The notes under the pieces: model-generated | The model's input: only the letters and a program-made list of their open reading frames with translations | The model's database searches: none | What the model was told of the DNA's origin: nothing | Assembly: GCA_030066885.1 (NCBI GenBank) | Contig: JASJAT010000044.1 | Location: forward strand, 4,138 to 68,137 | Source of the DNA: Arenicellales bacterium | GTDB taxonomy: Bacteria > Pseudomonadota > Gammaproteobacteria > Arenicellales > JAANXG01 | Direction of reading: 5' to 3' | Length of the DNA stretch: 64,000 bases | Program-made: the position numbers and the translations under genes | Part shown: positions 11,354-27,334 of the stretch, piece by piece | Layout: every line of letters begins with the position of its first letter | Numbering within the stretch: position 1 is the first letter of the stretch

Positions 11354-11471
11354 AATTTTGCTTAGTACACGGCCACTTCTTTATCGTCTTGGGGGGTGGA
11401 TAAACCCGTCCCTCGGACGTTTAGTTTCTACCATATCCGGGGATAATGTTATTAGCTAAGATTAGCAATAG

Positions 11472-11636
11472 CTAGAACCACTTCAACCAAAACAAGAGGA
11501 CTAGGACCAAGATAATTGCATCCCAAAATATCAATTCACCTACCCTAAACCAGTGGGTACTTCGGTTTAAACGGTGTAAACCAAACCCTGCGACCACTGC
11601 TATGAATAGGGGAATAAGGTGGATTGCGGGACTCAT
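11472..11636 (-). CDS. candidate 54-aa two-helix small membrane protein (below the apparent 60-aa floor of the ORF track)
   Basis: My translation: MSPAIHLIPLFIAVVAGFGLHRLNRSTHWFRVGELIFWDAIILVLVLLFWLKWF, ending at TAG 11474-11472. The ATG (11636-11634) overlaps the TGA of the upstream ABC ATPase as ATGA. There are two hydrophobic stretches separated by a basic loop. Confidence 0.45.
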   Translation of the reverse strand: MSPAIHLIPLFIAVVAGFGLHRLNRSTHWFRVGELIFWDAIILVLVLLFWLKWF

Positions 11637-12688
11637 ATCCGCCGACGACCGTTAAGGGCCTCGAAGAAATGGCGGTTTTCGCGGGGAAGCTCCAAATGGA
11701 CGACAGAACCTCGTTCGAGTTGACCCACTTCGCGTAGGACCCGTACCACCAACGCCGCCTCATTGTTCTTAACAAATAGCAAAGTGTCAGGTTCGACCAG
11801 TTCGATCACATCTAGCTCGAATTCGATAGTATCGTCAGTTGCCCTATCTCGAAGAACAATCTGTTCGGGTCGAATGCCCATCGCCACAGGCCCATCAGGT
11901 TGTTGTGGCACGCTAATTTCAAAGCCACCGGCATGGAAAATCCCCGCCTCGATTTCGCCGTCGATGATATTCATGGCTGGCCGTCCAATGAACTCAGCAA
12001 CAAAACGTGTTGCGGGCTCATGATAAACCCGCTTGGGTGTATCAAACTGTACTAACTTTCCTTCGTTCAACACCGCTATCCGCGTCCCCAGTGTCATCGC
12101 CTCCTCTTGGTCGTGAGTTACGAACACGAAAGTATGCCCCAAATCGCCGTGTAGACGTTTGAGTTCGGTCCGAGTCTGCAGACGAAGTATTGCATCCAGG
12201 TTACTCAAAGGTTCGTCCATCAAGCAGATGTCCGGATTCCACACCAGGGCACGGGCAACAGCCACCCGTTGCGCCTGCCCTCCCGAGAGTTGGCTGGGTC
12301 GACGGTTAAGAAAGGCATCGATTTGAAGCAGTTGGGCAATCTCTCGCACCTTTTCATCTATCTGTCCGGTGGCGATTTTCCTTACTCGTAACGGATAGGC
12401 GATGTTTTCAAACACCGTTTTGTGGCTATATAGCGCATAGTTTTGAAAAACCATGCTCATATTGCGTTCCCGTGGCGGCAGCTTGGTGATATCTCGACCG
12501 TCAATCGACACGGAACCGGATGTGGCTTGTTCAAGCCCGGCGAGAATTCGACACGCCGTGGTCTTGCCGCTCCCAGACGGCCCGAGTAGGACAATGAATT
12601 CTCCTTGGTTGAACTCGAGCCGGAGGTTGTCGAGAGCGATGGTACCGTCAGCGAAAACCTTACTGACTTGGTCGAACGAAATAGTCAC
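11633..12688 (-). CDS. ABC transporter ATP-binding protein, MalK/UgpC (CUT1) type
   Basis: 351 aa with Walker A GPSGSGKTT, signature LSGGQAQRVAVARAL, Walker B CLMDEPLS and a C-terminal MalK-like regulatory domain. Confidence 0.93.
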   Translation of the reverse strand: MTISFDQVSKVFADGTIALDNLRLEFNQGEFIVLLGPSGSGKTTACRILAGLEQATSGSVSIDGRDITKLPPRERNMSMVFQNYALYSHKTVFENIAYPLRVRKIATGQIDEKVREIAQLLQIDAFLNRRPSQLSGGQAQRVAVARALVWNPDICLMDEPLSNLDAILRLQTRTELKRLHGDLGHTFVFVTHDQEEAMTLGTRIAVLNEGKLVQFDTPKRVYHEPATRFVAEFIGRPAMNIIDGEIEAGIFHAGGFEISVPQQPDGPVAMGIRPEQIVLRDRATDDTIEFELDVIELVEPDTLLFVKNNEAALVVRVLREVGQLERGSVVHLELPRENRHFFEALNGRRRI

Positions 12689-12694
12689 CTGCGC

Positions 12695-13513
12695 TTATCC
12701 TTTCACCGCTCCGAAGGTCAGCCCACGCACCAAGTGCTTCTGCACGATAAATGTAAATACCAAGATAGGAAGTGTCGCAACGACCGCCACTGCTGCGACC
12801 TGCCCCCACAATGTCCCATGCGGCGTAATCAATCCGGGGATACCCACGGTGAGTGTGCGTCCCTCGAATGCAACCAAGATGAAGGCATAGAGAAATTCGT
12901 TCCAGCTCAAGATGAAACACAGCACAGCCGTGGCGGCCAGTCCTGGCGCAGCCAGCGGCACCAGGATTTTAAGAAACGTCCCGAATTGAGAATGACCATC
13001 CATCATGGCTGCTTCGTCTATGTCGCGCGGTATGTCATCAAAGAATCCCCGCATCATCCACACCACCAGCGATAGGTTAAAGGTAGTGTGCGCCAGGATT
13101 ACCGCAATCGGTTTGTCGGTAATACCCAACGTGGTAAACAGTAGAAACATTGGTACAACTATCGATATGGGCGGTGCCATCCGGGTAGTTAGAAAGAAGA
13201 AAAAAAGATCTTCCTTGCCTCGAAAGTCAAACCGCGCAAACACGTAAGCTGCCGGCGCACCGACCACAAGCGACAACACCGTGCTGAACGTCGCAACAAT
13301 GATGGAATTCCATACAAGCGGCAAGTAGCCCTTATCAATGAAAACCTTCGGGTAGTGGTCGAAGGTAGGGGCAAAGGCCCATACCGGGATGTCCGCCAAA
13401 GCGTCCAGCCGGGTCTTGAACGACGTCAGAAAAATCCACAGATACGGTAGCAACATCAAGACCAACACCACGATGACCGCTGCCAATGCTGCTGTTTTCC
13501 ACGCGCGAGTCAT
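12695..13513 (-). CDS. ABC sugar/polyol-phosphate permease (UgpE/MalG-like)
   Basis: 272 aa, six TM helices, EAA loop DIDEAAMMDGHSQFGTFLKILVPLAAPG. Confidence 0.9.
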   Translation of the reverse strand: MTRAWKTAALAAVIVVLVLMLLPYLWIFLTSFKTRLDALADIPVWAFAPTFDHYPKVFIDKGYLPLVWNSIIVATFSTVLSLVVGAPAAYVFARFDFRGKEDLFFFFLTTRMAPPISIVVPMFLLFTTLGITDKPIAVILAHTTFNLSLVVWMMRGFFDDIPRDIDEAAMMDGHSQFGTFLKILVPLAAPGLAATAVLCFILSWNEFLYAFILVAFEGRTLTVGIPGLITPHGTLWGQVAAVAVVATLPILVFTFIVQKHLVRGLTFGAVKG

Positions 13514-14442
13514 TACCTTGCGAAACCCGCCCGCCGGCTCCGCTGTCCTCCACCCCAGAACACGGCTTTATAAAAAACCGCACATAGGATGAGTACGACC
13601 AGATACACCATGAAGGCACACACCGCGCCATAACCAAGGTCCCAGTCCTTGAAGTTAACCCGGTAGGTGTAGATAGAAAGGAGCTCGGTTGCGATACCCG
13701 GTCCGCCGCCAGTCAGAATAAAGACTTTATCGAACTCCTTGAACGCATCTATACCACGCAACAGTAAGACTAAAGCGATGATCGGGCGCAACAGGGGTAA
13801 AGTGACATCTCTGAAAAGCTGTAGTGGACCGGCGCCGTCCATCACCGCGGCTTCATAGGGTTCGCGGGGCAGACTGAGCAGACCCGCCAGCATGATCAAT
13901 GTCACAAACGGTGTCCATTGCCATAGGTCAATCAGCATGATAGCCGGTAGTACCAGAGACGAGTCGGATAAGATCGCCGTCCGCTCATCGATTACGCCGA
14001 TCAATCGTAGGTAATAAGTCACCATGCCAAAATCGCCTTGTAAAAGCAGCTTCCAGATCAAACCGACAGCGACTGGTGCCAACATCATCGGAACGAGTAA
14101 GAGGGTTAAAAACAACCGGCGCTTTTGGATGAAATGAAATAACAACAGGGCAAGGGCAAAACCCGCGATAAACTCGATGATAACAACCCAAACCACGAAC
14201 TTAAGGGTCAACAGGAAGCTATGCCAGAAAATGTGATCCTCACGCACCAATCGGCGGAAATTGTCGAATCCTACGAAACTGCCTTCCCGACCTGGCAGGG
14301 CAAAATGAAGGTCGGTGAAGCCCGTCCATACCATATAAAGGAACGGGCCCACTAGGATCAATAAGAGGAGGAGTACGGAAGGGATCAACAATAGCGGAGC
14401 CATCCCGCGATCGACGATCGCTCCCATCCTCCTATTAATCAT
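13513..14442 (-). CDS. ABC sugar/polyol-phosphate permease (UgpA/MalF-like)
   Basis: 309 aa with EAA loop EPYEAAVMDGAGPLQLFRDVTLPLLRP. The start is uncertain because AGGAGG directly abuts the second ATG. Confidence 0.88.
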   Translation of the reverse strand: MINRRMGAIVDRGMAPLLLIPSVLLLLLILVGPFLYMVWTGFTDLHFALPGREGSFVGFDNFRRLVREDHIFWHSFLLTLKFVVWVVIIEFIAGFALALLLFHFIQKRRLFLTLLLVPMMLAPVAVGLIWKLLLQGDFGMVTYYLRLIGVIDERTAILSDSSLVLPAIMLIDLWQWTPFVTLIMLAGLLSLPREPYEAAVMDGAGPLQLFRDVTLPLLRPIIALVLLLRGIDAFKEFDKVFILTGGGPGIATELLSIYTYRVNFKDWDLGYGAVCAFMVYLVVLILCAVFYKAVFWGGGQRSRRAGFAR

Positions 14443-14520
14443 AATGGCAACTCTAACTAGCTAGTTCCTGTCCGAAAATAGCATGGGTCATTGTAATGGC
14501 CCTCGACTCGATCCGGGAAA

Positions 14521-14555
14521 CGTAGCAATCCAGGATGTTTCTCTGGATTGCTACG
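14521..14555 (-). promoter_or_regulatory. perfect 13-bp stem / 9-nt loop hairpin between the binding-protein and permease genes
   Basis: CGTAGCAATCCAG (14521-14533) and CTGGATTGCTACG (14543-14555) are exact reverse complements. On the transcribed minus strand the hairpin is followed by TTTCCC. Confidence 0.6.
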
Positions 14556-14653
14556 CTTTGTCTACCATACGCGTTTGTTGATACTAGCACCTCCGCACAA
14601 TGGCGCTTGTTCCGGACATAGACTAGCTGAGCTAGTTTGTCATATCTGCCATG

Positions 14654-16051
14654 CTACTGAACCGGATACTTCATGGGTGCGCAAGACCCCAGGAGTTTAG
14701 ATATCTCCGCGGCAGCTGTATCGAGCGCTTCCTTTGCGTTCTTTTGGTCAGACAGGTAACTGCTCAGTTCTCGCACCAAGATATCGGTGATCTGTGGCGA
14801 CTCAGGAATCGTGGGTTTTGGCAAAGCAACCGCATTCGTGTCCATAGATGCCTTTGAATAGCTAATTTGCTGTACGTCCGGATGGGCGTACACGTCTGGC
14901 CTTGCGGATGCACCTCCGTTCAAGTGTTGGTTCAACTGTTGCTGCTGTTCCATCATCCATTGAACAAATAAATAAGCTGCTTCCTTGTTCTTCGAGTAAG
15001 TTGGAATCAGATAGGTCCAACCCTCAACTTGACCAACCTTTCCGCCTTTCCCCTGGGGAATTATGTCGAACCCCATCTTACCGGCAACAGTACTTGCCTC
15101 CGCGTCTTCAGCTACCGCATAGGTAGCGTCATTCCACATGATCAACTGATACACTTTCCCTTGTTGCATTAGCGCCATAACATCATCCCAGAAATAGTTC
15201 AGTGTATCCGCGGGCGAGTAATCCATCAGGCTCTTGTAATATTCCAGTGAAGCGATGGCCTCGGGACTATTGACGATGACGGGACCGCATTCGCTGCCCG
15301 CTTTTACTTCCAGCATATCGCCGCCAAAGCTGTAGAGGAAATTGAGCCATTCGTACCAAAGTGCTTCGTGCCGCTTGCCTTGAATAGCCGTACCGTAAAA
15401 ACCTTCATCCGGTCGGGTAAACCATTCGGCAATGTCGGTGTACTCCTGCCAAGTCGTCGCCGGCTTCAAGTCATACCCGTACTTGGCCTTGAAACCTTCC
15501 CGTTCCTTCGGGTCGTTCAGAAGATCATCCCGATACCACATGTACATGGTGAGTGCGGTAAATGGAAAACCATAAATCTTCCCGCCATACCACGATATCT
15601 CCTTCCAAAGTCCCTGATAGAGCTGATCTTCGGGACTAAAGGAAGGATCACGTAATGCAGAATTGTCGAGGTATTTCTCCAATGCTTCAACGTGGCCATT
15701 GGCAACGAAACGGCCGAGCTCCCGGTGCGGTTGTAAAATAAAATCATACCGACCGCGTTTGGAGTTCAGGTCTAGCATAACCTTGTTGACCGCTTCAGAG
15801 TGTTCGTACATCTCGATAACAACCTCGATACCGGTACGTTCTTCAAAATCCCCCTTGAGCTTTTCCATGGCCTCAAGCGGTGGTAATGCCTCACCGATGG
15901 TGCGTATGGTGATCCCTTTATAAGGAGCTGCCGCTTCTTCCAGCGTCCAAGCCACGGCGTGTGTACCAGTGAAGAGTGTTAGAAGAATTGCTAAGAAAGC
16001 TGTTTCCATGCTGATACGAAACAGCCGACCGAATGATGGTTCAAGCCTCAT
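14654..16051 (-). CDS. ABC transporter periplasmic substrate-binding protein (family 1, sugar / glycerol-phosphate type)
   Basis: 465 aa with a signal-peptide-like N-terminus ending AVA/W. GGGAGG lies 5 nt upstream of ATG 16051. First gene of the transporter operon. Confidence 0.85.
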   Translation of the reverse strand: MRLEPSFGRLFRISMETAFLAILLTLFTGTHAVAWTLEEAAAPYKGITIRTIGEALPPLEAMEKLKGDFEERTGIEVVIEMYEHSEAVNKVMLDLNSKRGRYDFILQPHRELGRFVANGHVEALEKYLDNSALRDPSFSPEDQLYQGLWKEISWYGGKIYGFPFTALTMYMWYRDDLLNDPKEREGFKAKYGYDLKPATTWQEYTDIAEWFTRPDEGFYGTAIQGKRHEALWYEWLNFLYSFGGDMLEVKAGSECGPVIVNSPEAIASLEYYKSLMDYSPADTLNYFWDDVMALMQQGKVYQLIMWNDATYAVAEDAEASTVAGKMGFDIIPQGKGGKVGQVEGWTYLIPTYSKNKEAAYLFVQWMMEQQQQLNQHLNGGASARPDVYAHPDVQQISYSKASMDTNAVALPKPTIPESPQITDILVRELSSYLSDQKNAKEALDTAAAEISKLLGSCAPMKYPVQ

Positions 16052-16275
16052 ATCAACCTCCCATGCGTTGGTAGCGCCTGACGCGCCCTTACTTTAACGT
16101 CGCGCTGCGTTGTGCTGAGTTTTATTACCTAACTGCCGCCCAACATCGCCTACAGGCATTGTTTGGGTTGTGTCACGATACCACTGGGAATGTGGTTCTT
16201 GCAATATCTATTTGTTTATTACAACATTAAGACATCACTGTTACTCGCGCCGGGAAAAGACGGGGAGACAGCTTC

Positions 16276-16953
16276 ATGGATTTCATTTTCATGTTGACAC
16301 AGCACGACAAGACCGTCCCTAATTGTTTAGAAGTCCTTGATAATATAGGACATATTGGAATTTCACATATCGGTTTCAAGGATCTTGGCGTCGACACCGA
16401 TACCCTCTCGACACTCACCAAGCGCATAAAAAACACCGGGGCCATGTCATATATGGAAGTGGTGAGCACAACACGTAAAGGGGTTCAAACGTCGATTCAA
16501 ACCGCTTCTAAAATTGGGGTTGACCGGGTACTCGGTGGTCAGGAAATCGAATTCGCCATGGAAGTTCTTAAAACTACCAACGTAGGATACTACCCGTTCC
16601 CGGGCCGTCCAACTGGGCACCCGACTCAACTTGAGGGCTCTCCCGTTGATGTCAAGAAAGATTGCATTCGGATCCGTGCTGCCGGTTGCCCTGGGGTCGA
16701 TCTTCTGGCTTACCGGGCGACCCAGTCCGACCCCCTGGAACTTGTTCGTGCTGCCAGGGCCGGGTTGGATACAGGTTATTTGATTGTTGCAGGCAGTGTT
16801 GACTCCCCCGCCCGTATTCGTGAACTGGCTGAAGCGGGGGCAGATGCCTTTACCATCGGATCTGCGGTTTTTGAGGGGACTTTCGCTCCGGGAAATAGTT
16901 CGATTGTGCACCAGTGCCAACAGATTCTTGCCGTCTGTGAACAACTCGCATGA
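16276..16953 (+). CDS. TIM-barrel-like protein (GlpP / NanE-like phosphate-binding C-terminus); exact family not recognised
   Basis: 225 aa. The C-terminal IVAGSVDSPARIRELAEAGADAFTIGSAVF resembles the phosphate-binding end of (beta/alpha)8 sugar-phosphate enzymes. GGGGAGA lies ~7 nt upstream of the ATG, and the stop overlaps the next start (ATGA). Confidence 0.5.
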   Translation: MDFIFMLTQHDKTVPNCLEVLDNIGHIGISHIGFKDLGVDTDTLSTLTKRIKNTGAMSYMEVVSTTRKGVQTSIQTASKIGVDRVLGGQEIEFAMEVLKTTNVGYYPFPGRPTGHPTQLEGSPVDVKKDCIRIRAAGCPGVDLLAYRATQSDPLELVRAARAGLDTGYLIVAGSVDSPARIRELAEAGADAFTIGSAVFEGTFAPGNSSIVHQCQQILAVCEQLA

Positions 16954-18296
16954 GCACAGCCATGTTAAGCGGCTCTCCTGGAGACAAGACGAAAGACCAA
17001 GACATCATTGCGCGGCTGCTCGCTGGGACAATACCAGACCCCGACGGTGAAGAAACAGATGTCCTCACCGTCCCTACCCAACAAGTGGTTATCGCCGATA
17101 GCCTTGTTGATCAGGAAGCGGTACTGGTGCGGAACCTGGGGATTGAACCTCCATTTGCCGTAGTCAGCGACCCGCTTACTCGCGAAGTTCTAGGCGATAG
17201 GGTCGAGCGAGCTTTGGCATCGATTGGGCGTATATTCAAAATACATCTCGGCCATCAGCCCAAGGCCGACATGGAGACGGTTGATGCGTTGGAAAGGGAA
17301 ACCACAATGGCGAGCAGTTTGATTGCTGTTGGTTCGGGCACAATCAACGACTTATGCAAATTTGTTGCGCACAAGCAGAACAAACCCTATGCCGTATTTG
17401 CCACCGCCCCATCGATGAATGGGTACACGTCGGTGAACGCGGCGATCAGTGAATACGGCCTTAAGAAGTCTTTGCCCGCAACAGCGGCAAAAGGTGTATT
17501 CATGGATCTTGGGGTACTCGCCGAAGCGCCGGTTCGCATGATCCGCTCCGGATTGGGCGATTCCGTTTGCCGCCCCACGGCGCAATCCGACTGGCTGTTG
17601 TCACACCTTCTTTTCGGGGGCATGTACCGGCTTGCCCCTTTTTCGTTACTGCAAGAAGACGAAGAGGCCCTGCTGGCGGAATCAGAAGCCCTCGTCTCCG
17701 GTGACCTCGAGGCGATGGGCCACCTCGCCCGCACACTGATTTTGTCTGGTTTCGGAATGACCATCTGCGGCGGCAGCTACCCCGCCAGCCAGGGGGAGCA
17801 TCTGATAAGTCATTATGTCGAGATGATGCCGCCGGCGAGCTGGGATGAAGCTTTTCATGGTGAACAAATCGCCGTCACAACCTGTGTCATGGCCCGGCTT
17901 CAGGAACGAATTTTGACCGGCCCTCGGCCGCGAGTAAAACCAAGCATGGTGGATAGACACACCTTAATCAGTCACTACGGGGCTGAAACAGGCGAGGCTT
18001 GCTGGAAAGAATTCTCACTGAAGCGGGTGGACGCCGAAAAAGCCGAGCAACTCAACGCCCAACTGGAGCAGACTTGGCCCGACATATGTGACCAAATCTC
18101 CCGTACGACAATTTCGTCACGTCAAATAGAGTCCGCTCTGGCACGAGCCGGGGCCCCGACTACCTGCACCGATATCAAACTGTCCCGGGCGTTTTTTCGA
18201 GATGCCGTTTCGCATGCACGCGAGATTCGCAATCGATATACCTTTCTCGATTTGGCCGCCGATGCGGGTAGATTGGACGTCGATGCACTTCTCTAA
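16950..18296 (+). CDS. iron-containing ADH superfamily protein, glycerol-1-phosphate dehydrogenase (AraM/EgsA)-like
   Basis: 448 aa with GSGTINDLCKFVA, ATAPSMNGYTS and GEHLISHY. These resemble the nucleotide- and metal-binding motifs of the GldA/G1PDH branch. Confidence 0.65.
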   Translation: MSTAMLSGSPGDKTKDQDIIARLLAGTIPDPDGEETDVLTVPTQQVVIADSLVDQEAVLVRNLGIEPPFAVVSDPLTREVLGDRVERALASIGRIFKIHLGHQPKADMETVDALERETTMASSLIAVGSGTINDLCKFVAHKQNKPYAVFATAPSMNGYTSVNAAISEYGLKKSLPATAAKGVFMDLGVLAEAPVRMIRSGLGDSVCRPTAQSDWLLSHLLFGGMYRLAPFSLLQEDEEALLAESEALVSGDLEAMGHLARTLILSGFGMTICGGSYPASQGEHLISHYVEMMPPASWDEAFHGEQIAVTTCVMARLQERILTGPRPRVKPSMVDRHTLISHYGAETGEACWKEFSLKRVDAEKAEQLNAQLEQTWPDICDQISRTTISSRQIESALARAGAPTTCTDIKLSRAFFRDAVSHAREIRNRYTFLDLAADAGRLDVDALL

Positions 18297-18299
18297 CTG

Positions 18300-19127
18300 A
18301 TGCGACCGGTAAAGGACTGCCCCAGCGAAACCCTGCGCCAGCTGCGCGCTGTCCTTTGCGACATTGACGACACCCTGACCTGGCAGGGGCGACTTCCCGC
18401 TGTGGCCTACAATGCCCTTGAGCGGCTTCGTGGGAACAACTTGATTGTGGTGCCGATCACCGGGCGCCCCGCGGGCTGGTGTGACCATATCGCCCGCATG
18501 TGGCCGGTCGATGGAATCGTCGGCGAGAATGGTGCATTTTATTTCCACTACGATTCCGGGTCGCAGGAAATGATCAGGCAATATTGGCGCACACCTCAGC
18601 AGCGACATGACGATCGCGCAAAACTCGATATCATCAAAAACCGTGTTTTAAAAGAGATCCCTGACGCCGCTATTGCGACAGACCAGGCTTACCGGGAGGC
18701 TGACCTAGCCATAGACTTTTGTGAAGACGTGCCTCGTTTGTCTGCGGGGCAGATCGAACGAATCGTTGAGATATTTAAAGCCGCCGGTGCGACTGCCAAA
18801 GTAAGCTCTATACACGTAAACGGGTGGTTTGGCGACTACGACAAACTGGCCATGACCAAACAAATGTTTGAGCAGGTGTTTTCCATAGACATCGAATCTG
18901 ATGCCGCCGCAATTGCATTTGTCGGTGACTCGCCTAACGACGTAGACATGTTTGAGTTCTTTCCCAACGCAGTGGGCGTAGCCAATGTGCAGGAATGGGT
19001 TGATTCTCTCCAGGCAACGCCCCGGTGGGTGACTGAGAAACCCGGTGGATTCGGCTTTGCCGAATTCGCCCGGATCGTGGTCGATGCGAGGGGTGATGGG
19101 AAAAATGATGAATACACGTCTTTCTAA
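18300..19127 (+). CDS. HAD-IIB (Cof / sugar-phosphate phosphatase type) hydrolase
   Basis: 275 aa with motif I CDIDDTLT, PITGRP and motif IV GDSPNDVDMF. The start is 4 nt after the upstream stop. Confidence 0.85.
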   Translation: MRPVKDCPSETLRQLRAVLCDIDDTLTWQGRLPAVAYNALERLRGNNLIVVPITGRPAGWCDHIARMWPVDGIVGENGAFYFHYDSGSQEMIRQYWRTPQQRHDDRAKLDIIKNRVLKEIPDAAIATDQAYREADLAIDFCEDVPRLSAGQIERIVEIFKAAGATAKVSSIHVNGWFGDYDKLAMTKQMFEQVFSIDIESDAAAIAFVGDSPNDVDMFEFFPNAVGVANVQEWVDSLQATPRWVTEKPGGFGFAEFARIVVDARGDGKNDEYTSF

Positions 19128-19881
19128 GAACGAACGCTGGGAGCGGATTCTTTCTCGTCTGAACAATGACGTCACGGTGCGCATATCCGCTTTGGCAGAA
19201 CAGTTCGGAGTCACCACCGAAACCATTCGTCGGGACATTGACGAACTGACGGAACAGGGCCTGGTTAGCCGCACCTATGGTGGTGCGGCCAGCAGGTCTC
19301 TGACCGCCGAACCGAACCTGTTGCAACGGCGCGAGCGTCATGTCGCGGAGCGGCAACGAATCGCCCAGCTCGCAATTTCATTAGTCCAAGCCGGCGACGT
19401 TATAATGATTGACTCCGGTTCCACCACTTATCAATTCGCACTTGCGCTGTCCGCTCGGACAATTGCGTTGACCGTGCTCACCAACTGCCTGCCGATTGCA
19501 CAGAATCTGGGCGGGATCAGGGGTTTCAAGGTCATTCTTTGCCCCGGGACTTACAGTAAAACCGAGAACGCGGTATATGGCCAGGAGACCATTGCTTTCC
19601 TGGATCGCTTCCAAGCAAATAAAGCAGTGATCGGAGCTGGGGGTCTAACCGCGAACTGTGTAACGGATGCTGACACAGAAGCGGCCTGGGTAAAGAGAAA
19701 GATGATTGAACGATCAGAACACACGATACTTGTGCTTGACCACAGCAAATTCGACCTGCAGATGTTCGACCGTGTCTGCCCATTAAGCCACATCCAAGAT
19801 GTCGTTGTCGATCGCGATCCCCCCGAGGAGTTGAGGCGCGCCCTCCGAGCTGCTCCTGTTCAAATATATGTGGCAAACTAA
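19105..19881 (+). CDS. DeoR/GlpR-family transcriptional regulator
   Basis: HTH segment ISALAEQFGVTTETIRRDIDELTEQGLVSRTYGGA plus a DeoR-C sugar-phosphate sensor domain. The track ORF starts at 19045 inside the HAD gene. I chose ATG 19105; 19096 is also possible. Confidence 0.88.
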   Translation: MMNTRLSKNERWERILSRLNNDVTVRISALAEQFGVTTETIRRDIDELTEQGLVSRTYGGAASRSLTAEPNLLQRRERHVAERQRIAQLAISLVQAGDVIMIDSGSTTYQFALALSARTIALTVLTNCLPIAQNLGGIRGFKVILCPGTYSKTENAVYGQETIAFLDRFQANKAVIGAGGLTANCVTDADTEAAWVKRKMIERSEHTILVLDHSKFDLQMFDRVCPLSHIQDVVVDRDPPEELRRALRAAPVQIYVAN

Positions 19882-19908
19882 AACGGTGAACTAAAAGTAC
19901 AAATAGAC

Positions 19909-21357
19909 ATGTTTGTCGGTGTCGACATCGGAACCCAAAGCCTCAAAACAGTCGTCCTAGACGACGATATGCAGCTTCGAGGCGAAGCCGCGACCGCCTA
20001 CCAGCCGTCGTTTCCCCGTCCCGGTTGGTCGGAGCAAGATCCTGCACTATGGGAGACCGCCTTGGCTCAAACCATCAACCGGGCTCTAACGAGGGCACAA
20101 GTCCAAGCCGGCGACGTCAGGTCACTGGGCATCGGTGGGCAGCTAGACGGGTGTATCGCCGTCGGCAACAATGGATTGTCCCTATCACCCTGTCTAATCT
20201 GGATGGACCGCCGGGCTGAGACCGAGATCATCGGCTTGCCTGCGAAAGAGATCCGAGAAAAAACCGGTATCGTGCTCGACGCCTCGCACATGGCCGCCAA
20301 GATCAGATGGTTAAAAGACAATGTCGCGGGGACCAAGCAGAGTTGCCTGTTTCATCAACCCTCGTCGTATCTCGTTTATCGCCTGACGGGTAATCACGTC
20401 ATGGACCATGCGCTGGCGTCGACCAGCATGTTGTACTCACTGTCTACGCAGGCGTTTGATCCTTGGCTACTTCAACTGTTTGAAATCGACCGTTCCGAGC
20501 TGCCTGCGGTGTCGGCAGCCGAACATTGCGCGGGCACACTGAACGCTCAGGGGAGTGAATTGACCGGTCTTAACATAGGAACCCCGGTCGCCGTGGGTAC
20601 CGGAGATGATTTCTCAACGCCGTTGGGCGCTGGAGTGGTTGATCCGGGACGATTGGTTTGTGTGCTGGGGACGGCGGAAGTGGTTGGTGCAGTTCATCCT
20701 GAGCCGATCATAGACGACAAGGCCCTGGTCGAAACCCACGCCTTTCCGGGGGGCGGCTTTTTCATTGAAAACCCAGGATGGCTTTCTGGCGGTGCGCTCA
20801 CCTGGTTCAAGGAAGTATTGACGCTGAAAGATTTCAAAGAGTTTGACCGCTTAGCCGAGACCGTGACACCCGGCTGCGGCGGGGTTACGTTCCTGCCGGG
20901 GTTGACTGGAACTATGGCGCCGGAATGGGTTGCCTCGGCACGAGGTTGCTTTTACGGCCTAACGCCGGCCCACAGCAAAGAGCATATGATGCGGGCTGTT
21001 CTCGAAGGAACCGCTTTTGCAATGCGCGACGTGGCGGAACGGCTTGGTGGAATGGGAGTAGACCTACGTTCAATCCTGCTCTTGGGGGGAGGCGCCAGCA
21101 GTCGCGTTTGGGCAAGGATTCGTGCCGATCTCACCGGGTTGCCGGTTGAAATTCCAGCGCTAACCGACACAGCTCCCATAGGCAGTGCGCTACTCTCAGC
21201 CGTTGCCGCAGGTCATTTATCTGATCTCACCGCCGCAACCGAGCTTTTAACCCTGGGGAGCGAAACAATAGAGCCTGACGCTTCATCCAAACCGGCGTAC
21301 GACGAAGCCCATGCCGCTTATCGTCTGCTTTTCCAAAGCCTGCGCCCGATGTTTTAA
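19909..21357 (+). CDS. FGGY-family carbohydrate kinase (xylulokinase / glycerol-kinase-like)
   Basis: 482 aa with VGVDIGTQSLK, GWSEQDP, IWMDRR and GGGASS. Confidence 0.88.
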   Translation: MFVGVDIGTQSLKTVVLDDDMQLRGEAATAYQPSFPRPGWSEQDPALWETALAQTINRALTRAQVQAGDVRSLGIGGQLDGCIAVGNNGLSLSPCLIWMDRRAETEIIGLPAKEIREKTGIVLDASHMAAKIRWLKDNVAGTKQSCLFHQPSSYLVYRLTGNHVMDHALASTSMLYSLSTQAFDPWLLQLFEIDRSELPAVSAAEHCAGTLNAQGSELTGLNIGTPVAVGTGDDFSTPLGAGVVDPGRLVCVLGTAEVVGAVHPEPIIDDKALVETHAFPGGGFFIENPGWLSGGALTWFKEVLTLKDFKEFDRLAETVTPGCGGVTFLPGLTGTMAPEWVASARGCFYGLTPAHSKEHMMRAVLEGTAFAMRDVAERLGGMGVDLRSILLLGGGASSRVWARIRADLTGLPVEIPALTDTAPIGSALLSAVAAGHLSDLTAATELLTLGSETIEPDASSKPAYDEAHAAYRLLFQSLRPMF

Positions 21358-21670
21358 ACCGGGGATAAATATAACGAATCGCGGCGAGGGCGCCGCTCCT
21401 ACAAGGTTCTGCTATTTGTAAAAAGGAAAAACTCCCGCCAAGCCGCCAAGCTCGCAAAGACCCAAGGAAACTTTGAAGGGGTGTAAGTCGGCGTGTCAGT
21501 GGCAACCCAGAAACCGGATTGTTTAGCTCTGTCTACCACTTGCTTTTGGCCGTACTAATACCTCAACAAATGTCGAAATACTGAAATGATTATCTCTCCC
21601 TTGGCGGCCTTAGCTCCTTTACGAGAGAATAATTCGACCGTAATGGTGCTCAGACAATACAGCCTTTTGG

Positions 21671-23545
21671 CTACGCAGCGGTCTTTTTCAGATGCACCAA
21701 TAACAGAGAAATGGCTGCCGGTGTGACACCCGATATGCGGGAAGCTTGGCCTATAGTGGTCGGTCGGTATTGGGTTAATTTCTGTTTGATCTCAGAGGAA
21801 AGTCCGTGCACGTTGGTGTAGTCGAAATCCACGGGCAGCGTTGTCTCTTCATGGCGGCGCCGGCGCGAGATTTCCGTCTGCTGCCGTTCGATATACCCTG
21901 AATACTTGGCCTGGATTTCCAGTTGCTCTGCAACTTTTGTATCAGTAGAACCAGGCCCAATGCCGGGTAAGCTCATCAGCTGTCCATAACTGACTTCGGG
22001 GCGACGTAACAGCGCCATTATGTTCGACTCCTTGGTTAAACTTTGGCCCAAAACATTCTTTTCGACTTCAGCATCGAGCTGACCCGGTTGTAACCATGTG
22101 GACTCAAGTCTGGCTACTTCTTTTATGATAGCTTCCCGCTTTTCGCTAAAGTGGCGCCAGCGCAAGTCGTCCACCAAGCCCAGATCCCGACCGATTTCCG
22201 TCAATCGCAGGTCGGCGTTATCCTCACGTAACAACAAGCGGTATTCAGCCCTCGAGGTGAACATACGGTAAGGCTCGTTCGTGCCCGAGGTAATCAAATC
22301 ATCGATTAACACACCGATATAGGCCTGGTCTCGTCGTGGCCACCACCGGTCTTTTTGTTGTATTTTCAGAGCAGCATTGATACCGGCGACCAGCCCTTGT
22401 CCGGCAGCTTCTTCATAGCCAGTAGTGCCGTTGATCTGGCCTGCGAAAAACAAACCTTCCAAAAACTTGGTCTCAAGTTCCGGTTTCAGGTCGCGTGGAT
22501 CAAAGTAATCGTACTCAATGGCATATCCAGGTCGAATTAATTCGGCTTGTTCAAACCCCTGTATTGACCGCACCAGCTGCCACTGCACGTCAAAGGGCAA
22601 GCTGGTTGAGATACCGTTCGGATAGACCTCTTTGGTATGTAAACCTTCCGGTTCCACGAAGATTTGGTGTGATTCTTTTTCTTTGAAACGGACTATCTTG
22701 TCCTCGATGGATGGGCAGTAACGCGGACCCACGCCCTCGATTACACCCGAATAGAGTGGTGAGCGATCAAGTGCCCCTCGGATTATGTCGTGGGTCCGTG
22801 CGTTAGTCTGAGTTATGTAACATGGGACCTGCTCTGGATGTTCATCGGCAGAGCCCAAAAAGGAAAACACCGGGGGCGGCATATCACCCGGTTGTCGCAC
22901 CATCTGGGCCGTGTCAATTGTTCGGCCGTCGAGGCGGGGCGGCGTCCCTGTCTTCAAGCGCTCAACGCGAAACGGCATTTCCCTTAGACGATCCGCCAAT
23001 CTGTTTGCCGGGGGATCACCCATACGCCCGCCGGGGTGATTGGCCAGTCCGACATGGATTTTCCCGCCTAGAAAAGTTCCCACGGTCAATACGATTGCGG
23101 GTGCTGTAAATTTGAGACCTAACTCCGTGACCACGCCATCGACCCTATTTTGAATAACAACGAGGTCCTCAACGGATTGTTGAAACAGGGTCAGGTTAGG
23201 TTGTGCCTCCAACATTTGTCGTATGTTTAACTTGTAGAGGCTGCGATCCGCCTGTGCCCGGGTAGCCCGCACGGCAGGCCCTTTGCGTGAATTCAAAATA
23301 CGGAATTGGATCCCCGCCCGATCGATAGCTTGCGCCATGGCGCCGCCGAGCGCGTCGATTTCCTTAACGATGTGTCCTTTTCCTATGCCACCTATCGCGG
23401 GGTTGCAAGACATCTGTCCGAGTGTTTCCAAGTTCTGGGTCAGCAACAAGGTTTTACAACCCATGCGCGCCGCCGCCAACGCAGCCTCAGTGCCCGCGTG
23501 TCCCCCGCCTACGACAATGACCTCAAACTGTTGCGGAAATTGCAT
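21671..23545 (-). CDS. mnmG: tRNA uridine 5-carboxymethylaminomethyl modification enzyme MnmG (GidA)
   Basis: 624 aa with the FAD motif [14 protein letters not shown] and [11 protein letters not shown]. Confidence 0.98.
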
Positions 23546-23722
23546 GCCTTTTGTTCCCGTTTGTTGAAAAAGGATTCTAATGTGGATAGTCGAAAGAATG
23601 AAAGTTTAAAGAACCAATAGGTTGCTTTACTTTTTCCTCTCAACTTTTCACTTCTACTTCTCGCATCGTCACTTTTAGTATTCTTTGGAGTAGAGCGAAA
23701 GCTCAATAGCAGATTTACAGTT

Positions 23723-25063
23723 TTATTTCCCGATACAAAAGCTCGAAAAGATTCGGCCCAGTAGCTGATCACTGCTGAATTCACCGGTAATCTCAGCAAA
23801 GTGTCGCTGCGCCAGCCTTAGTTCTTCTGCCAGCAGTTCACCGGCATTGGCCTCGACCAACTGCTGCCGACCCACGACTATGTGCTGCAATGCTTCACGG
23901 ATAGCATTTAGATGCCTGTTTCGAGCAATGAAGGTGGAACCATCCGTATCTCGATACCCGGCGGTTCGTTTCAGATGTTGTCTCAGCTCATTCAGCCCGT
24001 GCCCATACTTGGCTGAGATGGCCAGTGCATCAAATTGCCCGAATGAAAAACTGCCGCTATTCCGGCCAGTCAGATCAATCTTGTTAAACACGTAGGTACA
24101 AGGGACCTGCTTTGTCGGAACGAAGACGTCTTTGTCCGCCTTTGATTCACAGTCATCGACAATGAAAAGAATGTGGTCCGCATTTTCGAGAGCAGCGTGC
24201 GTCCTGCGCACACCCTCACTCTCAACAGCATCACTTGCGTCGCGCAGACCCGCGGTATCTACCAAGTACACCGGCATACCATCGAGCTGAATCTGCAATT
24301 CTATTGTGTCCCTTGTTGTACCGGGGGCCGCATTGACTATAGCTCGGTCATGCCGGGCCAATGCGTTGAGCAAGCTTGACTTGCCCGCGTTAGGTCGGCC
24401 GGCCAGGACGACGTGCAAACCCTCCCGCAATAGACACCCCTGTTTAGTGGAAGACATCAAGTCATTTGTCCTTTCGATAATTTTATCTAGGTCTCGCACG
24501 ACGCGCGCGTCACTTAAAAAATCGATTTCCTCTTCGGGGAAATCAATCGCTGCTTCAACATAGGTACGTAGATCAATCAGTTCTTCCACCAGCCCGTGGA
24601 CAGCCTGTGAAAATAAACCCTGCAGGGACCTCTGCGCCGATCGAACCGCCTGCTCCGTGCTACTGTCTATCAGATCGGCTACCGCTTCGGCTTGGGCCAA
24701 ATCTAACTTACCGTTGTGGAAAGCCCGCTCGGTAAACTCCCCTGGATTGGCGAGCCGTGCACCGCAGGTGAGACACCTGTTGAGCAACATGTTCATGACG
24801 ATTGGGCCGCCATGTCCGTGCAGCTCTAGTATGTCTTCGCCAGTAAAAGAGTGCGGTGACGGAAAGTAAATAGCAATCCCCGAATCGAGTATTTGGCCGT
24901 CCTGGTCCTTAAAATGGGTATAGGTTGCGTAGCGTGGTTGGGGTAGTACCCCAACAACCTGTTTCGCAACACCCGGGACTGCGGGCCCCGACACCTTGAC
25001 AACCCCAATGCCGCCGCGTCCGGCAGGAGTAGCGATGGCCGCGATGGTATCCCTTTCGGACAT
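23723..25063 (-). CDS. mnmE: tRNA modification GTPase MnmE (TrmE)
   Basis: 446 aa with G1 GRPNAGKSSLLNAL, DTAG and the C-terminal CIGK. Confidence 0.98.
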   Translation of the reverse strand: MSERDTIAAIATPAGRGGIGVVKVSGPAVPGVAKQVVGVLPQPRYATYTHFKDQDGQILDSGIAIYFPSPHSFTGEDILELHGHGGPIVMNMLLNRCLTCGARLANPGEFTERAFHNGKLDLAQAEAVADLIDSSTEQAVRSAQRSLQGLFSQAVHGLVEELIDLRTYVEAAIDFPEEEIDFLSDARVVRDLDKIIERTNDLMSSTKQGCLLREGLHVVLAGRPNAGKSSLLNALARHDRAIVNAAPGTTRDTIELQIQLDGMPVYLVDTAGLRDASDAVESEGVRRTHAALENADHILFIVDDCESKADKDVFVPTKQVPCTYVFNKIDLTGRNSGSFSFGQFDALAISAKYGHGLNELRQHLKRTAGYRDTDGSTFIARNRHLNAIREALQHIVVGRQQLVEANAGELLAEELRLAQRHFAEITGEFSSDQLLGRIFSSFCIGK

Positions 25064-25268
25064 TGGTGGTCGCGCTGTCGTGTGGCTCCTAGCCTGTAGA
25101 TTGCATCAGGACCCCGGATGATGATCAGCCAGGGCCGGGGTAGACCAACCATGGGACAAACTGTATTCGTCGTAAGATCCGTCGACTAGAGTATTTTCAA
25201 TCATCAATCATGAATCATGGGCGTACATGCAACAATACGGTCGCCTTGGTGCAATCTGCGAGCTAGTC

Positions 25269-26945
25269 CTAAGCGCCGCCAATGACGACTTTGTTGACGT
25301 ACCACTGCTGTGCTATAGACAGCACGTTGTTGACTAACCAGTACAGTACCAATCCGGCTGGGAAATAAAGGAATAAAAAGGTGAAAACGATCGGCATCGC
25401 CATCATGATCTTCTTTTGCATAGGATCGAGGGGTGATGGATTCAGTAACTGCTGCCCCAGCATGGTTGCCCCCATGAGCAGCGGTAGCACGAAGTAGGGA
25501 TCTTTAATGGACAAGTCCTGGATCCACCATCCAAAGGGGGCTTGCCTCAGCTCAACGCTTTCCAGCAGGACCCAATACAACGCTATGAATACCGGTATTT
25601 GGATCACGATGGGTAAACAACCCCCCAGGGGATTTACTTTTTCCTTTTTATAAATTTCCATCATTGCTTGATTGAGCTTGGCCTTGTCGTCACCGTGCCG
25701 CTCTTTAAGAGTTTGTAGTCGAGGTTGCAATTTTTTCATTTTCGCCATGGATTTATAGCTGGTGGCGGACAGCGGATAAAAGGCCAACTTGATCAGGAAC
25801 GTAAGCAGCACAATGGACCAACCCCAATTGTGGACAAATCCGTTTATTTGGTTTAACACCCAAAACAACGGTACCGATACGGGTGTCAACCACCCATAGT
25901 CGACAGTCAGGGCAAATCCTTCGGCTTCTTGTTTGAGCCGCTCCTGCTCTTTAGGTCCAGCAAACAAGCCCACATCCAATTTCCCTATTGCACCAGCGGC
26001 AACCACCTGTGGGCGGAGCGTATTAAATCCGATGTTGTATCTAGGTCCACCTACATCATTAATCACCCGACTATAAAATTGAAAGGGACCTTGCCCTTGT
26101 GGAAACCATGCGCCGACAAAATAATGTTGCAGCATCGCCACCCAGCCCTCGGCCACTTTGCGATCCAAGTCGGCATCGACCATATCTGCAAAATCGATCT
26201 TCTCGAATTTTTCCTCGGGGGTATAAATGGCGCCACCTAAGTAGGCCGGTACCACATCCAGAAAAAACCCCCTACTCTGTGCCACCTGGGTGCGGAGAAA
26301 CTGCGCATATAGAAACCCGCTCCATTCCACCGCAGATTGATTATCGATCTCGAATTCGACACGTATGTTGTAACTGTCTCTCGTGAAAATGGTCTTTTTG
26401 ACATAGCGTACGCCATCTGGCGCCTCCCAGTAGAGCGGTACGACCAGTTCCTGATCGCCGGGTCTCAGCTTGTACTGTGTTTCTTCCGCCCTGTATTGAG
26501 TCCGGTGGTTGGGATATTCGGATGTGTTCCCAATCAATCCCGCTTGGGTAATGAATATATCAGCGTCCTCATACTTCATGAGTTCGAAAGGGACCTCGGG
26601 TTCGTCTACGCTGACCGGGTACTTCACCAGCGCTAGGCTTTTTATACTGCCACCAATAGTGTCGATCTCCGCACGAATAAGATCTGTTTCAACGACTATG
26701 AGTGGACTTACGGTACCTGCTGACTCGACTTGTTGCGGTGGCGCCTGAGGGCTGGCTGGAACTTCAACTGTCGGTGTGCTGGGTATATCCGCGGGGGGTG
26801 GTTGGGTACCTTGGGTTGGCGCTTCAACGGGCGTTTGTTGCGCGGGCGTAGGACGGCTCGGTGCTTGTTCCTCTAGCCACCGTTGATATATGAGCAATAA
26901 TATAAACGCTAATGCGAATAGTAAGATGACTCTTTGTATTTCCAT
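25269..26945 (-). CDS. yidC: membrane protein insertase YidC
   Basis: The track ORF starts at TTG 26951. ATG 26945 gives MEIQRVILLFALAFILLLIYQRW, a typical YidC N-terminal TM segment, and the conserved C-terminal five-TM core is present (GCLPIVIQIPVFIALY). Confidence 0.96.
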   Translation of the reverse strand: MEIQRVILLFALAFILLLIYQRWLEEQAPSRPTPAQQTPVEAPTQGTQPPPADIPSTPTVEVPASPQAPPQQVESAGTVSPLIVVETDLIRAEIDTIGGSIKSLALVKYPVSVDEPEVPFELMKYEDADIFITQAGLIGNTSEYPNHRTQYRAEETQYKLRPGDQELVVPLYWEAPDGVRYVKKTIFTRDSYNIRVEFEIDNQSAVEWSGFLYAQFLRTQVAQSRGFFLDVVPAYLGGAIYTPEEKFEKIDFADMVDADLDRKVAEGWVAMLQHYFVGAWFPQGQGPFQFYSRVINDVGGPRYNIGFNTLRPQVVAAGAIGKLDVGLFAGPKEQERLKQEAEGFALTVDYGWLTPVSVPLFWVLNQINGFVHNWGWSIVLLTFLIKLAFYPLSATSYKSMAKMKKLQPRLQTLKERHGDDKAKLNQAMMEIYKKEKVNPLGGCLPIVIQIPVFIALYWVLLESVELRQAPFGWWIQDLSIKDPYFVLPLLMGATMLGQQLLNPSPLDPMQKKIMMAMPIVFTFLFLYFPAGLVLYWLVNNVLSIAQQWYVNKVVIGGA

Positions 26946-26947
26946 CG

Positions 26948-27334
26948 TCAATCTGCTTCCGTCTCAAACCCGTGTCTATCGTAATTTTCGATGACTTGTA
27001 ACCAGATACGATTTAAGTCAGAGCGAACTCGTTGCTCATCCTTTATTAATTTGCGCAACACGACAATAACATCTATTCCTATTAGCATTTCCTGGTTCAA
27101 CCGAAAAGACTCCCGGACCAATCGTTTGATACGATTTCGCTGTACGGCCGTTTTAATTAGGCGTTTAGGTATTGCTATCCCTAGCCGCGCAGTTGTACCA
27201 CCATTACTCTGTGCAAACCATTTAAAAGTACCTGCGTAACCTTCGTGACCGGAGGTGAAAACCCTTTTAAAGGCTGCTGTTTCTTGCAGGCGATTTTTTT
27301 TCGTAAAACGGTTGCGTTGCGAAGTAGAATACAG
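26948..27334 (-). CDS. rnpA: RNase P protein component; start codon unresolved
   Basis: My translation reads ...RFTKKNRLQETAAFKRVFTSG...ARLGIAIPKRLIKTAVQRNRIKRLVRESFRL...ending at TGA 26950-26948. This includes the RNR motif. There is no in-frame ATG, GTG or TTG between the in-frame TAA inside rpmH and the conserved F-x-K-x-x-RL. CTG 27334 is listed as a provisional start. Confidence 0.85.
   Translation of the reverse strand: MYSTSQRNRFTKKNRLQETAAFKRVFTSGHEGYAGTFKWFAQSNGGTTARLGIAIPKRLIKTAVQRNRIKRLVRESFRLNQEMLIGIDVIVVLRKLIKDEQRVRSDLNRIWLQVIENYDRHGFETEAD

Follow-up and report, generated by a model that had tools for sequence, protein, structure and literature searches.

An uncharacterized catabolic operon of an Arenicellales bacterium joins an AraM-like dehydrogenase to an unnamed TIM-barrel family with a candidate role in keto-phosphate metabolism

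A 64,000-nucleotide stretch of DNA from the metagenome-assembled genome of an Arenicellales bacterium (Gammaproteobacteria; GenBank assembly GCA_030066885.1, contig JASJAT010000044.1, positions 4,138 to 68,137 of the forward strand; hereafter the window) contains a five-gene plus-strand operon at positions 16276-21357 that is a conserved, uncharacterized catabolic module. The operon encodes a TIM-barrel protein of 225 residues (TIM-225), a dehydrogenase related to AraM of Bacillus subtilis, a HAD-IIB phosphatase, a DeoR-family regulator and an FGGY kinase, and lies divergent to a four-gene ATP-binding cassette (ABC) importer of the CUT1 type (Table 1). Our tentative proposal, for which we see somewhat less than an even chance, is that a polyol or sugar would be imported, phosphorylated and oxidized beside the phosphate, and that a lysine-bearing TIM-barrel enzyme would then act on the resulting product, a compound of the dihydroxyacetone phosphate (DHAP) type. 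The original prediction, made from the sequence of the window, had suggested a glycerol phosphate stereoisomer, with sn-glycerol-1-phosphate (G1P) as one candidate, or a polyol phosphate; the polyol phosphate half of that suggestion is now the better supported.

TIM-225 belongs to an unnamed family. The database entry that is 100% identical to it is a 'hypothetical protein' (QNI91_06375), and the assignment to a hidden Markov model family that the original prediction had envisaged yields none at Pfam or NCBIfam threshold: the protein matches no Pfam family at E<=0.001, and on no NCBIfam model does it reach 26 bits, the cut-offs being above 110. For any member of the family alignment (A1), the top Pfam match is to His_biosynth (1e-5, below the gathering score). 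The AlphaFold2 model of the protein is a (beta/alpha)8 barrel of eight strand-helix units (pLDDT 95.3), with which Foldseek retrieves generic phosphate-binding barrels alone (OMPDC, ThiE, KDPG aldolase, TrpA, RPE and HisA; probability 1.0, TM 0.6-0.78). Sub-threshold sequence matches, to RPE, NanE, HisA/F, PcrB/GGGPS, TrpA and IMPDH, are confined to the beta7/beta8 phosphate-binding region (residues ~145-205). A TIM barrel with a phosphate-binding C-terminus had been predicted, and both the model and these matches indicate that TIM-225 has the standard beta7/beta8 phosphate-binding site. Membership of PcrB/GGGPS was ruled out, as the match is limited to the generic phosphate-binding motif.

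The superfamily shares a set of polar residues that may form an active site. D11, T13, K35 and E61 are invariant down to 26% identity, while Y146 and R147 reach 90% conservation or more. K35 is placed at the C-terminal end of beta2, a position that we take to differ from those of the Schiff-base lysines of KDPG aldolase, transaldolase and DERA; together, the invariant lysine, aspartate and glutamate would suit carbonyl chemistry. This large family has 5065 clusters at 90% identity, and 610 representatives remain at 50% identity and E<=1e-10; fusions among the representatives include PdxA-TIM (P0288, P0268), TIM-MGS-like, TIM-cupin, TIM-PALP and TIM joined to an Fe-ADH_2 fragment. TIM-225 is a candidate for a new DHAP-type lyase or isomerase.

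Indications of its role come from gene context. Neighbours were counted by tblastn with defined queries in 37 non-redundant TIM-containing loci with at least 3 kb of downstream sequence. The AraM-like gene adjoins the TIM gene in 24 of these loci, a DeoR gene is present in 17, an orthologous FGGY gene in 11 (with other FGGY genes in four more), HAD-IIB and SDR genes in eight each and a GlpD-like gene in three. In Nordella sp. HKS 07 the order of the five genes is identical to that of the window operon. The GlpD-like partners (in L001, L009 and L011) score 525-527 bits against a cut-off of 360, and in Bradyrhizobium tropiciagri a GlpD-like gene and an FGGY kinase gene come after the TIM gene, the AraM-like gene being absent. 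TIM paralogues with ~40% identity stand directly after a PdxA2-type gene on plasmids of five genera, and PdxA2 is in turn preceded by a DUF1537 'four-carbon acid sugar kinase' gene in Rhizobium, Bradyrhizobium, Gemmobacter and Roseateles; on a Gluconobacter plasmid PdxA2 and the TIM paralogue occur together with the kinase gene not adjacent. The plasmid paralogue is sometimes fused to, or located before, a cupin. TIM-225 thus partners three non-homologous dehydrogenases, AraM-like, GlpD-like and PdxA2-type, and, judged by the known reactions of these families, all three would create a -CO-CH2OP group, either in DHAP or in a DHAP-yielding keto-phosphate. Some plasmid paralogues are named '4-hydroxythreonine-4-phosphate dehydrogenase' in RefSeq (L091, 8983-9711; L092, 8989-9669; L095, 6989-7687); they are unrelated to PdxA, and the name was apparently inherited from the adjoining or fused pdxA.

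A complementary pattern is found in clusters of a rhizobial type, of which five loci were examined, from Sinorhizobium, Rhizobium, Agrobacterium, Shinella and Acidiphilium. These clusters combine genes for an FGGY kinase, a SorC regulator, an AraM-like dehydrogenase (annotated as sn-glycerol-1-phosphate dehydrogenase, G1PDH), a HAD-IIB phosphatase, glpD and a sugar ABC importer; their dehydrogenases, ~40% identical to that of the window, form a second proteobacterial clade. The TIM-225 gene is present in none of the five loci, and four of them encode a class II aldolase/adducin-family protein or a bifunctional aldolase/short-chain dehydrogenase, with no class II aldolase within the Shinella stretch examined. 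No class II aldolase homologue was detected at any of 90 TIM loci or in the window, so that the occurrence of TIM-225 and of class II aldolase is mutually exclusive. The class II aldolase family includes DHAP-releasing lyases, epimerases and decarboxylases. In the cluster of S. meliloti Ak57 (L096, CP090106.1, 11113-12785), glpD was left unannotated between the HAD-IIB and ABC genes; it aligns in two pieces (11125-12138 and 12146-12643) and is probably a pseudogene. The record CP090106.1 is labelled 'plasmid pSymB' though it is chromosome-sized (3.7 Mb).

The 448-residue dehydrogenase is a member of Fe-ADH_2 (PF13685, 3e-31) and carries the motifs GSGTINDLCKFVA, ATAPSMNGYTS and GEHLISHY. Against PDB sequences, the profile of its family scores B. 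subtilis AraM (9h4x) at 183 bits, archaeal G1PDHs at 92-111 bits (92-114 with 3ce9 included) and GldA at 42 bits or less. AraM 9h4x is also the top Foldseek match of its structural model (pLDDT 91; TM 0.73/0.82); ranks 1-11 are occupied entirely by AraM, M. jannaschii G1PDH or 3ce9, and GldA follows after. In line with the AraM-like assignment first made, sequence and model both place the protein on the G1PDH branch and not on the GldA branch, with AraM as its nearest solved relative. D204, H284/H288 and H303, which we take from the GldA/G1PDH literature to be the metal ligands, are invariant in 28 family members and align to the same residues in 9h4x, 4rfl, 5fb3 and 3ce9.

Whether the protein is a G1PDH proper is doubtful. 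Its score on the NCBIfam G1PDH equivalog NF002022, 181.6 bits, is below the cut-off of 413. All four solved relatives (AraM, 3ce9 and the G1PDHs of M. jannaschii and P. calidifontis) have the Asp of an S-x-D-G motif; in its place Asn157 (S-M-N157-G) is invariant in the clade of the window, as Asn is in the rhizobial clade. Han and Ishikawa are said to have implicated this Asp in substrate binding by the A. pernix G1PDH in 2005, the D144N and D144A mutants reportedly remaining active with weaker substrate binding. Similarly, the Arg of S-R-P-A/C-S-G, which is common to three proven G1PDHs and may bind phosphate, is replaced by Tyr in the window dehydrogenase (S-Y-P-A-S-Q), and the rhizobial clade has S-N-H-G-S-M at this position, so that the Arg is missing in both proteobacterial clades. 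The dehydrogenase belongs to a distinct proteobacterial subfamily of ~430 residues with S-M-N-G for S-x-D-G.

The window protein shares with AraM the Fe-ADH_2 fold, the GSGTI(N/H)D, GxGD, GEHxISH and HG motifs, and a long build (~400 residues) with a matching C-terminal helical region, and both are encoded beside a HAD phosphatase and an ABC importer. Core identity is ~30%, the Asp and Arg exchanges set the two apart, and the partners of the window type are a HAD-IIB rather than HAD-IIA phosphatase, TIM-225 in all cases and frequently an FGGY kinase and a DeoR regulator, without PcrB. The analogy to AraL drawn in the original prediction is sound insofar as a HAD phosphatase is coupled to the dehydrogenase, and is loose because the window phosphatase belongs to HAD-IIB; AraL we take to be a HAD-IIA enzyme. 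With the archaeal G1PDHs (EgsA; M. jannaschii 4rgq, P. calidifontis 5fb3) the protein has in common its branch of the glycerol dehydrogenase/DHQS superfamily, the metal ligands and a 'DW' motif, but it is ~100 residues longer, has the active-site Asp and Arg replaced and occurs in a catabolic rather than a lipid-biosynthetic context.

The remaining products of the operon were assigned to their families as first proposed (HAD-IIB, DeoR and FGGY, in addition to Fe-ADH_2). The 275-residue phosphatase scores 69 bits on the HAD-IIB model TIGR01484 (cut-off 41.8). Between the window and the paralogue clusters of Sinorhizobium, Rhizobium, Agrobacterium, Shinella and Acidiphilium it is 53-56% identical, compared with ~40% for the dehydrogenases, which makes it, by sequence, the most conserved partner of the dehydrogenase. 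The regulator has both HTH_DeoR and DeoRC domains and is under the cut-off of all DeoR equivalogs (AgaR, 148 against 260 bits; haloarchaeal GlpR, 148 against 300; SrlR, 129 against 350; GlpR PRK10906, 117 against 331). Its longest open reading frame (ORF) starts with GTG at 19045, and ATG candidates at 19096-19111 lie after GAGGGG; a start at one of the latter is more likely because the family models match from residue ~28. The 482-residue kinase has FGGY_N and FGGY_C domains and scores 310.1 bits on XylB (TIGR01312; cut-off 380.25), 227 bits on GlpK (TIGR01311; cut-off 590) and 184 bits on GntK. It reads GIGGQLDG in the segment where xylulokinases have GQMHG and glycerol kinases GVTNQRET, which contains the NQRET glycerol motif, and its GQxxG and IWxDxR motifs are XylB-like. 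These features suggest an enzyme that is XylB-like and not GlpK-like, probably of a related yet distinct specificity group, since the motifs resemble XylB while the score falls below the XylB cut-off.

The importer consists of an SBP_bac_1 substrate-binding protein (SBP), two BPD_transp_1 permeases and a MalK-like ATPase with an OB/TOBE tail, a composition typed as CUT1. Of the predicted UgpBAEC-like importer, the divergent CUT1 system is confirmed and the resemblance to Ugp is not. The two systems share the CUT1 architecture of one SBP, two permeases and a MalK/UgpC-type ATPase with C-terminal OB/TOBE, but there is no UgpB chain among the 27 PDB sequence matches of the SBP (E<=1e-3) and no UgpB model among its NCBIfam matches. 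The Ugp equivalogs of the other subunits are all under their cut-offs (UgpA, 107.7 against 335 bits; UgpE, 69.5 against 297; UgpC, 379 against 432), and the second permease scores better on MalG (130 bits). Because the SBP, on which the specificity depends, matches no UgpB model or structure, the likeness to Ugp is ascribed to generic similarity of CUT1 permeases and ATPases. The closest solved relatives of the SBP are 5iai (a 'sugar ABC transporter' protein), MalE3, a trehalose/maltose-binding protein and the 'sorbitol' SBP 4rya, and it is probably of the sugar/polyol-binding type. Orthologues with 73-89% identity stand divergent beside the TIM gene in at least nine metagenome loci. Orthology to the SBP of the rhizobial clusters was ruled out (26% identity), as was a link to the second ABC system of the window, whose SBP_bac_5 protein (47127-48722) is just 33% identical to the TIM-linked SBP_bac_5 of L001.

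From the observed gene content, synteny, family placement, motif differences, fusions and exclusivity of TIM-225 and aldolase, we infer every substrate, the order of the steps and their stereochemistry as follows. The DeoR-controlled operon would break down a neutral polyol or sugar-like compound (C3-C6) that enters through the divergent CUT1 system. A terminal CH2OH of this compound would be phosphorylated by the XylB-like FGGY kinase, and the AraM-like, metal-dependent dehydrogenase would then oxidize the carbinol beside the phosphate ester (-CHOH-CH2OP to -CO-CH2OP), which is the same chemistry as the conversion of G1P to DHAP, presumably at a D-configured, sn-1-like centre. TIM-225 would bind the phosphate at beta7/beta8 and process the DHAP-type keto-phosphate using K35, D11 and E61, most likely in a DHAP-releasing lyase or decarboxylase step or, alternatively, by conversion of DHAP itself. 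It would thereby fill the role that class II aldolase-family proteins would have in the rhizobial clusters. HAD-IIB may strip phosphate from a side product or off-pathway isomer, and the DeoR protein may sense a phosphorylated intermediate. Action of TIM-225 on a keto-phosphate is the most economical assumption because its three unrelated dehydrogenase partners all make -CO-CH2OP and because the class II aldolase family appears where TIM-225 is absent. The XylB-like kinase and the sugar/polyol-type SBP together suggest a substrate larger than glycerol. sn-G1P is D-glycerol-3-phosphate; were G1PDH-type enzymes to take D-configured omega-phosphates and GlpD-type enzymes the L-series, the co-occurrence of the two in many clusters would be explained.

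The closest parallel in overall logic is the erythritol catabolism of Brucella and rhizobia, with the FGGY kinase EryA, the GlpD-like polyol-phosphate dehydrogenase EryB, pathway-specific isomerases and the regulator EryD. Both systems would use an ABC importer, an FGGY kinase, oxidation beside the phosphate and a dedicated keto-phosphate enzyme, and the Bradyrhizobium variant with a GlpD-like enzyme, an FGGY kinase and TIM is especially similar. They differ in that the window dehydrogenase is of the G1PDH family, with the opposite stereochemistry expected, and in that a single unnamed TIM barrel stands in for EryC/TpiA2/RpiB, with HAD-IIB in addition. The DUF1537 and PdxA2 systems for D-threonate/D-erythronate or 4-hydroxythreonine likewise pair a kinase with a dehydrogenase acting beside the phosphate ester, give DHAP-type products and have ~40%-identical TIM-225 paralogues after or fused to PdxA2, whereas their kinase and dehydrogenase families are unrelated to those of the window and their control is by LysR rather than DeoR. 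No TIM barrel was found in the published DUF1537/PdxA2 pathway in the literature searched. The haloarchaeal non-carboxylating pentose bisphosphate pathway (PMC9700705) also involves a HAD phosphatase, a DHAP-releasing class II aldolase and a G1PDH-annotated protein, but the window system is without its R15P isomerase and nucleoside phosphorylase, and its reductase is distant.

Several observations weigh against the pathway proposed here. Transporters at TIM loci are CUT1 orthologues (SBP 73-89% identical), systems with a PotD-like SBP or systems with an Opp-like SBP, and with three transporter families accompanying the module the imported compound may differ between genomes. At L001-L006, L016 and L040, a HAD-IIA (NagD/AraL-type) phosphatase gene is beside the TIM gene, together with an Opp-like importer and corrinoid-methyltransferase-like genes (URO-D/B12-binding); L004-L006 additionally have a dimethylglycine-dehydrogenase-like gene. 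In the genomes with these HAD-IIA/Opp-like loci, the compound that is imported may be a different one. In one further genome the TIM gene is found by itself, surrounded by housekeeping genes (L068, LR026963.1, 9875-14257), just upstream of surA-pdxA-rsmA and without a kinase or AraM-like gene in the vicinity; this position may be accidental or may reflect a connection with PdxA chemistry. PdxA2 was reportedly found by Zhang et al. in 2016 to make DHAP by itself; a DHAP-releasing lyase would be redundant beside it, which favours a role of TIM-225 on DHAP itself. An aldolase step would also give an aldehyde for which the window operon encodes no obvious consuming enzyme, the HAD-IIB enzyme is not accounted for, and with the S-R-P-A-S-G Arg lost the dehydrogenase may equally well have given up phosphate binding altogether. 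No characterized orthologue of the module was found in the libraries or literature searched, and searches of the literature on G1PDH with FGGY, catabolism/AraM, polyols or rhizobia returned no characterization of it.

Among the alternatives, a true G1PDH would make the operon a route for catabolism of sn-G1P to DHAP, and the TIM barrel would act on DHAP, perhaps as an isomerase. The sources of G1P would be head groups or polymers that contain it, or glycerol that is imported and then phosphorylated at the 'wrong' end. In favour of this unlikely reading, the nearest solved relative in both sequence and fold, AraM, is a proven G1PDH, the metal ligands are conserved, the known product of all three dehydrogenase partners of TIM is DHAP, and an MGS-like domain is fused to one TIM. 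Many relatives, moreover, have a neighbour that passes the NCBI glycerol-3-phosphate (G3P) dehydrogenase cut-off, and such a pair would oxidize both glycerol-phosphate enantiomers. Set against these are the G1PDH equivalog score far under its cut-off, the invariant Asn and lost Arg, a XylB-like kinase without the NQRET motif, an SBP that is not UgpB-like, the lack of a glycerophosphodiesterase in the operon and of glpD in the window, and a TIM-barrel enzyme that would be superfluous were DHAP simply the end product. In addition, a Halobacterium protein annotated as G1PDH is a glycolaldehyde reductase without G1P or DHAP activity (PMC9700705), and on account of this case the annotation by itself is weak evidence. 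A dedicated proteobacterial catabolic route via sn-G1P, in which the AraM-like enzyme would yield DHAP and the new TIM-barrel family would handle the DHAP-type product, seems rather improbable; G1P would then be a non-canonical kinase product or derive from archaeal lipids, lipoteichoic acid or phosphatidylglycerol head groups. The evidence against G1P as substrate is not decisive, and the idea is somewhat disfavoured.

Comparably unlikely is a classical polyol route, in which an AraM-like enzyme that does not bind phosphate would oxidize a free polyol to a ketose, or reduce an aldehyde, before the XylB-like kinase phosphorylates the ketose; the TIM barrel, in this case an epimerase, isomerase or aldolase, would act on the ketose phosphate. 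Such routes commonly combine a polyol dehydrogenase with a XylB-type ketose kinase acting after it. The XylB-like kinase, the replacement of both the S-R-P-A-S-G Arg and the S-x-D-G Asp, and the epimerases RPE and NanE among the weak TIM-225 matches all agree with such a route, and the G1PDH-annotated haloarchaeal enzyme offers a precedent, as it acts on an unphosphorylated C2 aldehyde in a pathway with a HAD phosphatase and a class II aldolase (PMC9700705). That enzyme was ruled out as a close relative of the window protein, which scores 21 bits on its NCBIfam model, and the route would leave unexplained the PdxA-TIM fusions and the presence beside the TIM barrel of GlpD-like and PdxA2-type enzymes, whose substrates are phosphorylated. 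Catabolism of a tetronate (erythronate or threonate) is distinctly improbable. The FGGY kinase would give 4-phospho-tetronate, the dehydrogenase 3-oxo-tetronate-4-phosphate, with AraM-like enzymes for the D-series and GlpD-like enzymes for the L-series, and the TIM barrel would decarboxylate the latter to DHAP and CO2 as a non-homologous replacement for OtnC (an enzyme named in PMC12994016). The position of TIM paralogues after the DUF1537 kinase and PdxA2, a known D-threonate/D-erythronate module, is in keeping with this, as are the OMP decarboxylases among the top Foldseek matches of TIM-225 and the gluconokinases among FGGY kinases. OtnC is a member of the class II aldolase family, which is present in the TIM-less rhizobial clusters. 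The SBP, though, resembles binders of neutral sugars or polyols, CUT1 systems being unusual for small acid sugars, the kinase is XylB-like and not GntK-like (310 against 184 bits), and PdxA2 is thought to decarboxylate unaided. A biosynthetic function, in which G1PDH, a PcrB/GGGPS-like barrel and a phosphatase would make a G1P-derived ether or ester compound in the manner of AraM and PcrB in Bacillus, is highly improbable. Although TIM-225 has weak, sub-threshold matches to PcrB/GGGPS and a phosphatase gene adjoins the dehydrogenase gene, these matches concern the generic beta7/beta8 motif found equally in RPE, NanE and HisA/F, prenyl-diphosphate synthase and acyltransferase are absent, the layout with a divergent ABC importer, a DeoR repressor and a kinase is catabolic, and the same barrel pairs with GlpD and PdxA2.

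Table 1. Positions in the window of the operon, the divergent importer and the region between them
Feature	Positions	Strand	Length	Remark
MalK/UgpC-type ATPase gene	11633-12688	-		
CUT1 permease genes	13513-14442 and 12695-13513	-		
CUT1 SBP gene	14654-16051	-	465 aa	SBP_bac_1/8 domains
Divergent intergenic region	16052-16275		224 nt	presumed promoter/operator for both transcription units
TIM-barrel gene (TIM-225)	16276-16953	+	225 aa	
AraM-like Fe-ADH_2 dehydrogenase gene	16950-18296	+	448 aa	
HAD-IIB phosphatase gene	18300-19127	+	275 aa	
DeoR-family regulator gene	19045-19881 (longest ORF); likely start at 19096-19111	+	278 aa (longest ORF)	
FGGY kinase gene	19909-21357	+	482 aa	

The five plus-strand ORFs are packed as originally described, including the ATGA overlap at 16950-16953 and the 27-nt gap before the kinase gene. 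The gap between the dehydrogenase and HAD genes is 3 nt (18297-18299) rather than the 4 nt first given, and the overlap of the HAD and DeoR genes persists with the likely ATG start, which overlaps the HAD stop (19125-19127) by 17-32 nt. For a protein identical to the dehydrogenase, the start called by NCBI corresponds to 16962 (P0001, 444 aa), four codons later, which would leave an 8-nt gap after the TIM gene instead of the ATGA overlap. A scan of 11300-21800 for promoters, terminators and repeats gave nothing above chance, and in the intergenic region no significant sigma-70 match or inverted repeat was detected; its presumed promoter/operator function follows purely from its position.

The importer and operon form part of a block of ~11 kb (10529-21670) that lies between rsmG/gidB and mnmG/gidA, genes that are normally neighbours. 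Its flanks (8244-10518 and 21671-32799) contain the atp operon, parB/parA, mnmE, yidC, dnaA, dnaN and gyrB, and the minimum of the cumulative GC skew, at ~26-28 kb of the window, indicates that this catabolic block lies right beside the replication origin. The block also includes a gene for a PP2C Ser/Thr phosphatase of the Stp1/IreP type (10529-11353, minus strand; 254.6 bits against a cut-off of 230), directly downstream of the ABC ATPase gene. Another, unrelated PP2C-domain gene is found near the paralogue cluster of Agrobacterium salinitolerans (L099), probably by coincidence.

Elsewhere in the window, the glpD gene of the original prediction was not recovered: the sole DAO-family ORF (53647-54951) is without DAO_C and matches no G3P dehydrogenase model. 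It encodes a 434-residue DAO-family flavoprotein whose best NCBIfam match, N-methyltryptophan oxidase, is below cut-off at 83 bits; its similarity to amine oxidases is weak, and it follows an Opp/Dpp-type ABC system (47127-53487). The hydrolase-GDPD fusion that had been noted is real (43201-44847), but lies 22 kb away in an unrelated context. Its product of 548 residues joins a PGAP1-like alpha/beta hydrolase to GDPD, with weak matches, below cut-offs, to UgpQ-type and lysophosphatidylglycerol phospholipase D models.

The module is present in cultured bacteria (Nordella sp. HKS 07, with paralogue clusters in Sinorhizobium, Rhizobium, Agrobacterium, Shinella and Acidiphilium), which makes culture experiments feasible. 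Thousands of proteobacterial proteins carry the pipeline label 'sn-glycerol-1-phosphate dehydrogenase', whereas in a 2026 paper (PMC13400652) bacterial G1PDH is still treated as essentially confined to Bacillus. Counting the ~430-residue proteobacterial family as G1PDH in surveys of the lipid divide could mislead, because the family departs from proven G1PDHs in conserved residues of the active site and is encoded in catabolic operons. If, on the other hand, it is true that the proteobacterial AraM-like family oxidizes G1P, this would be news for the stereochemistry of bacterial glycerol phosphates and would make G1P metabolism a widespread trait of Bacteria.

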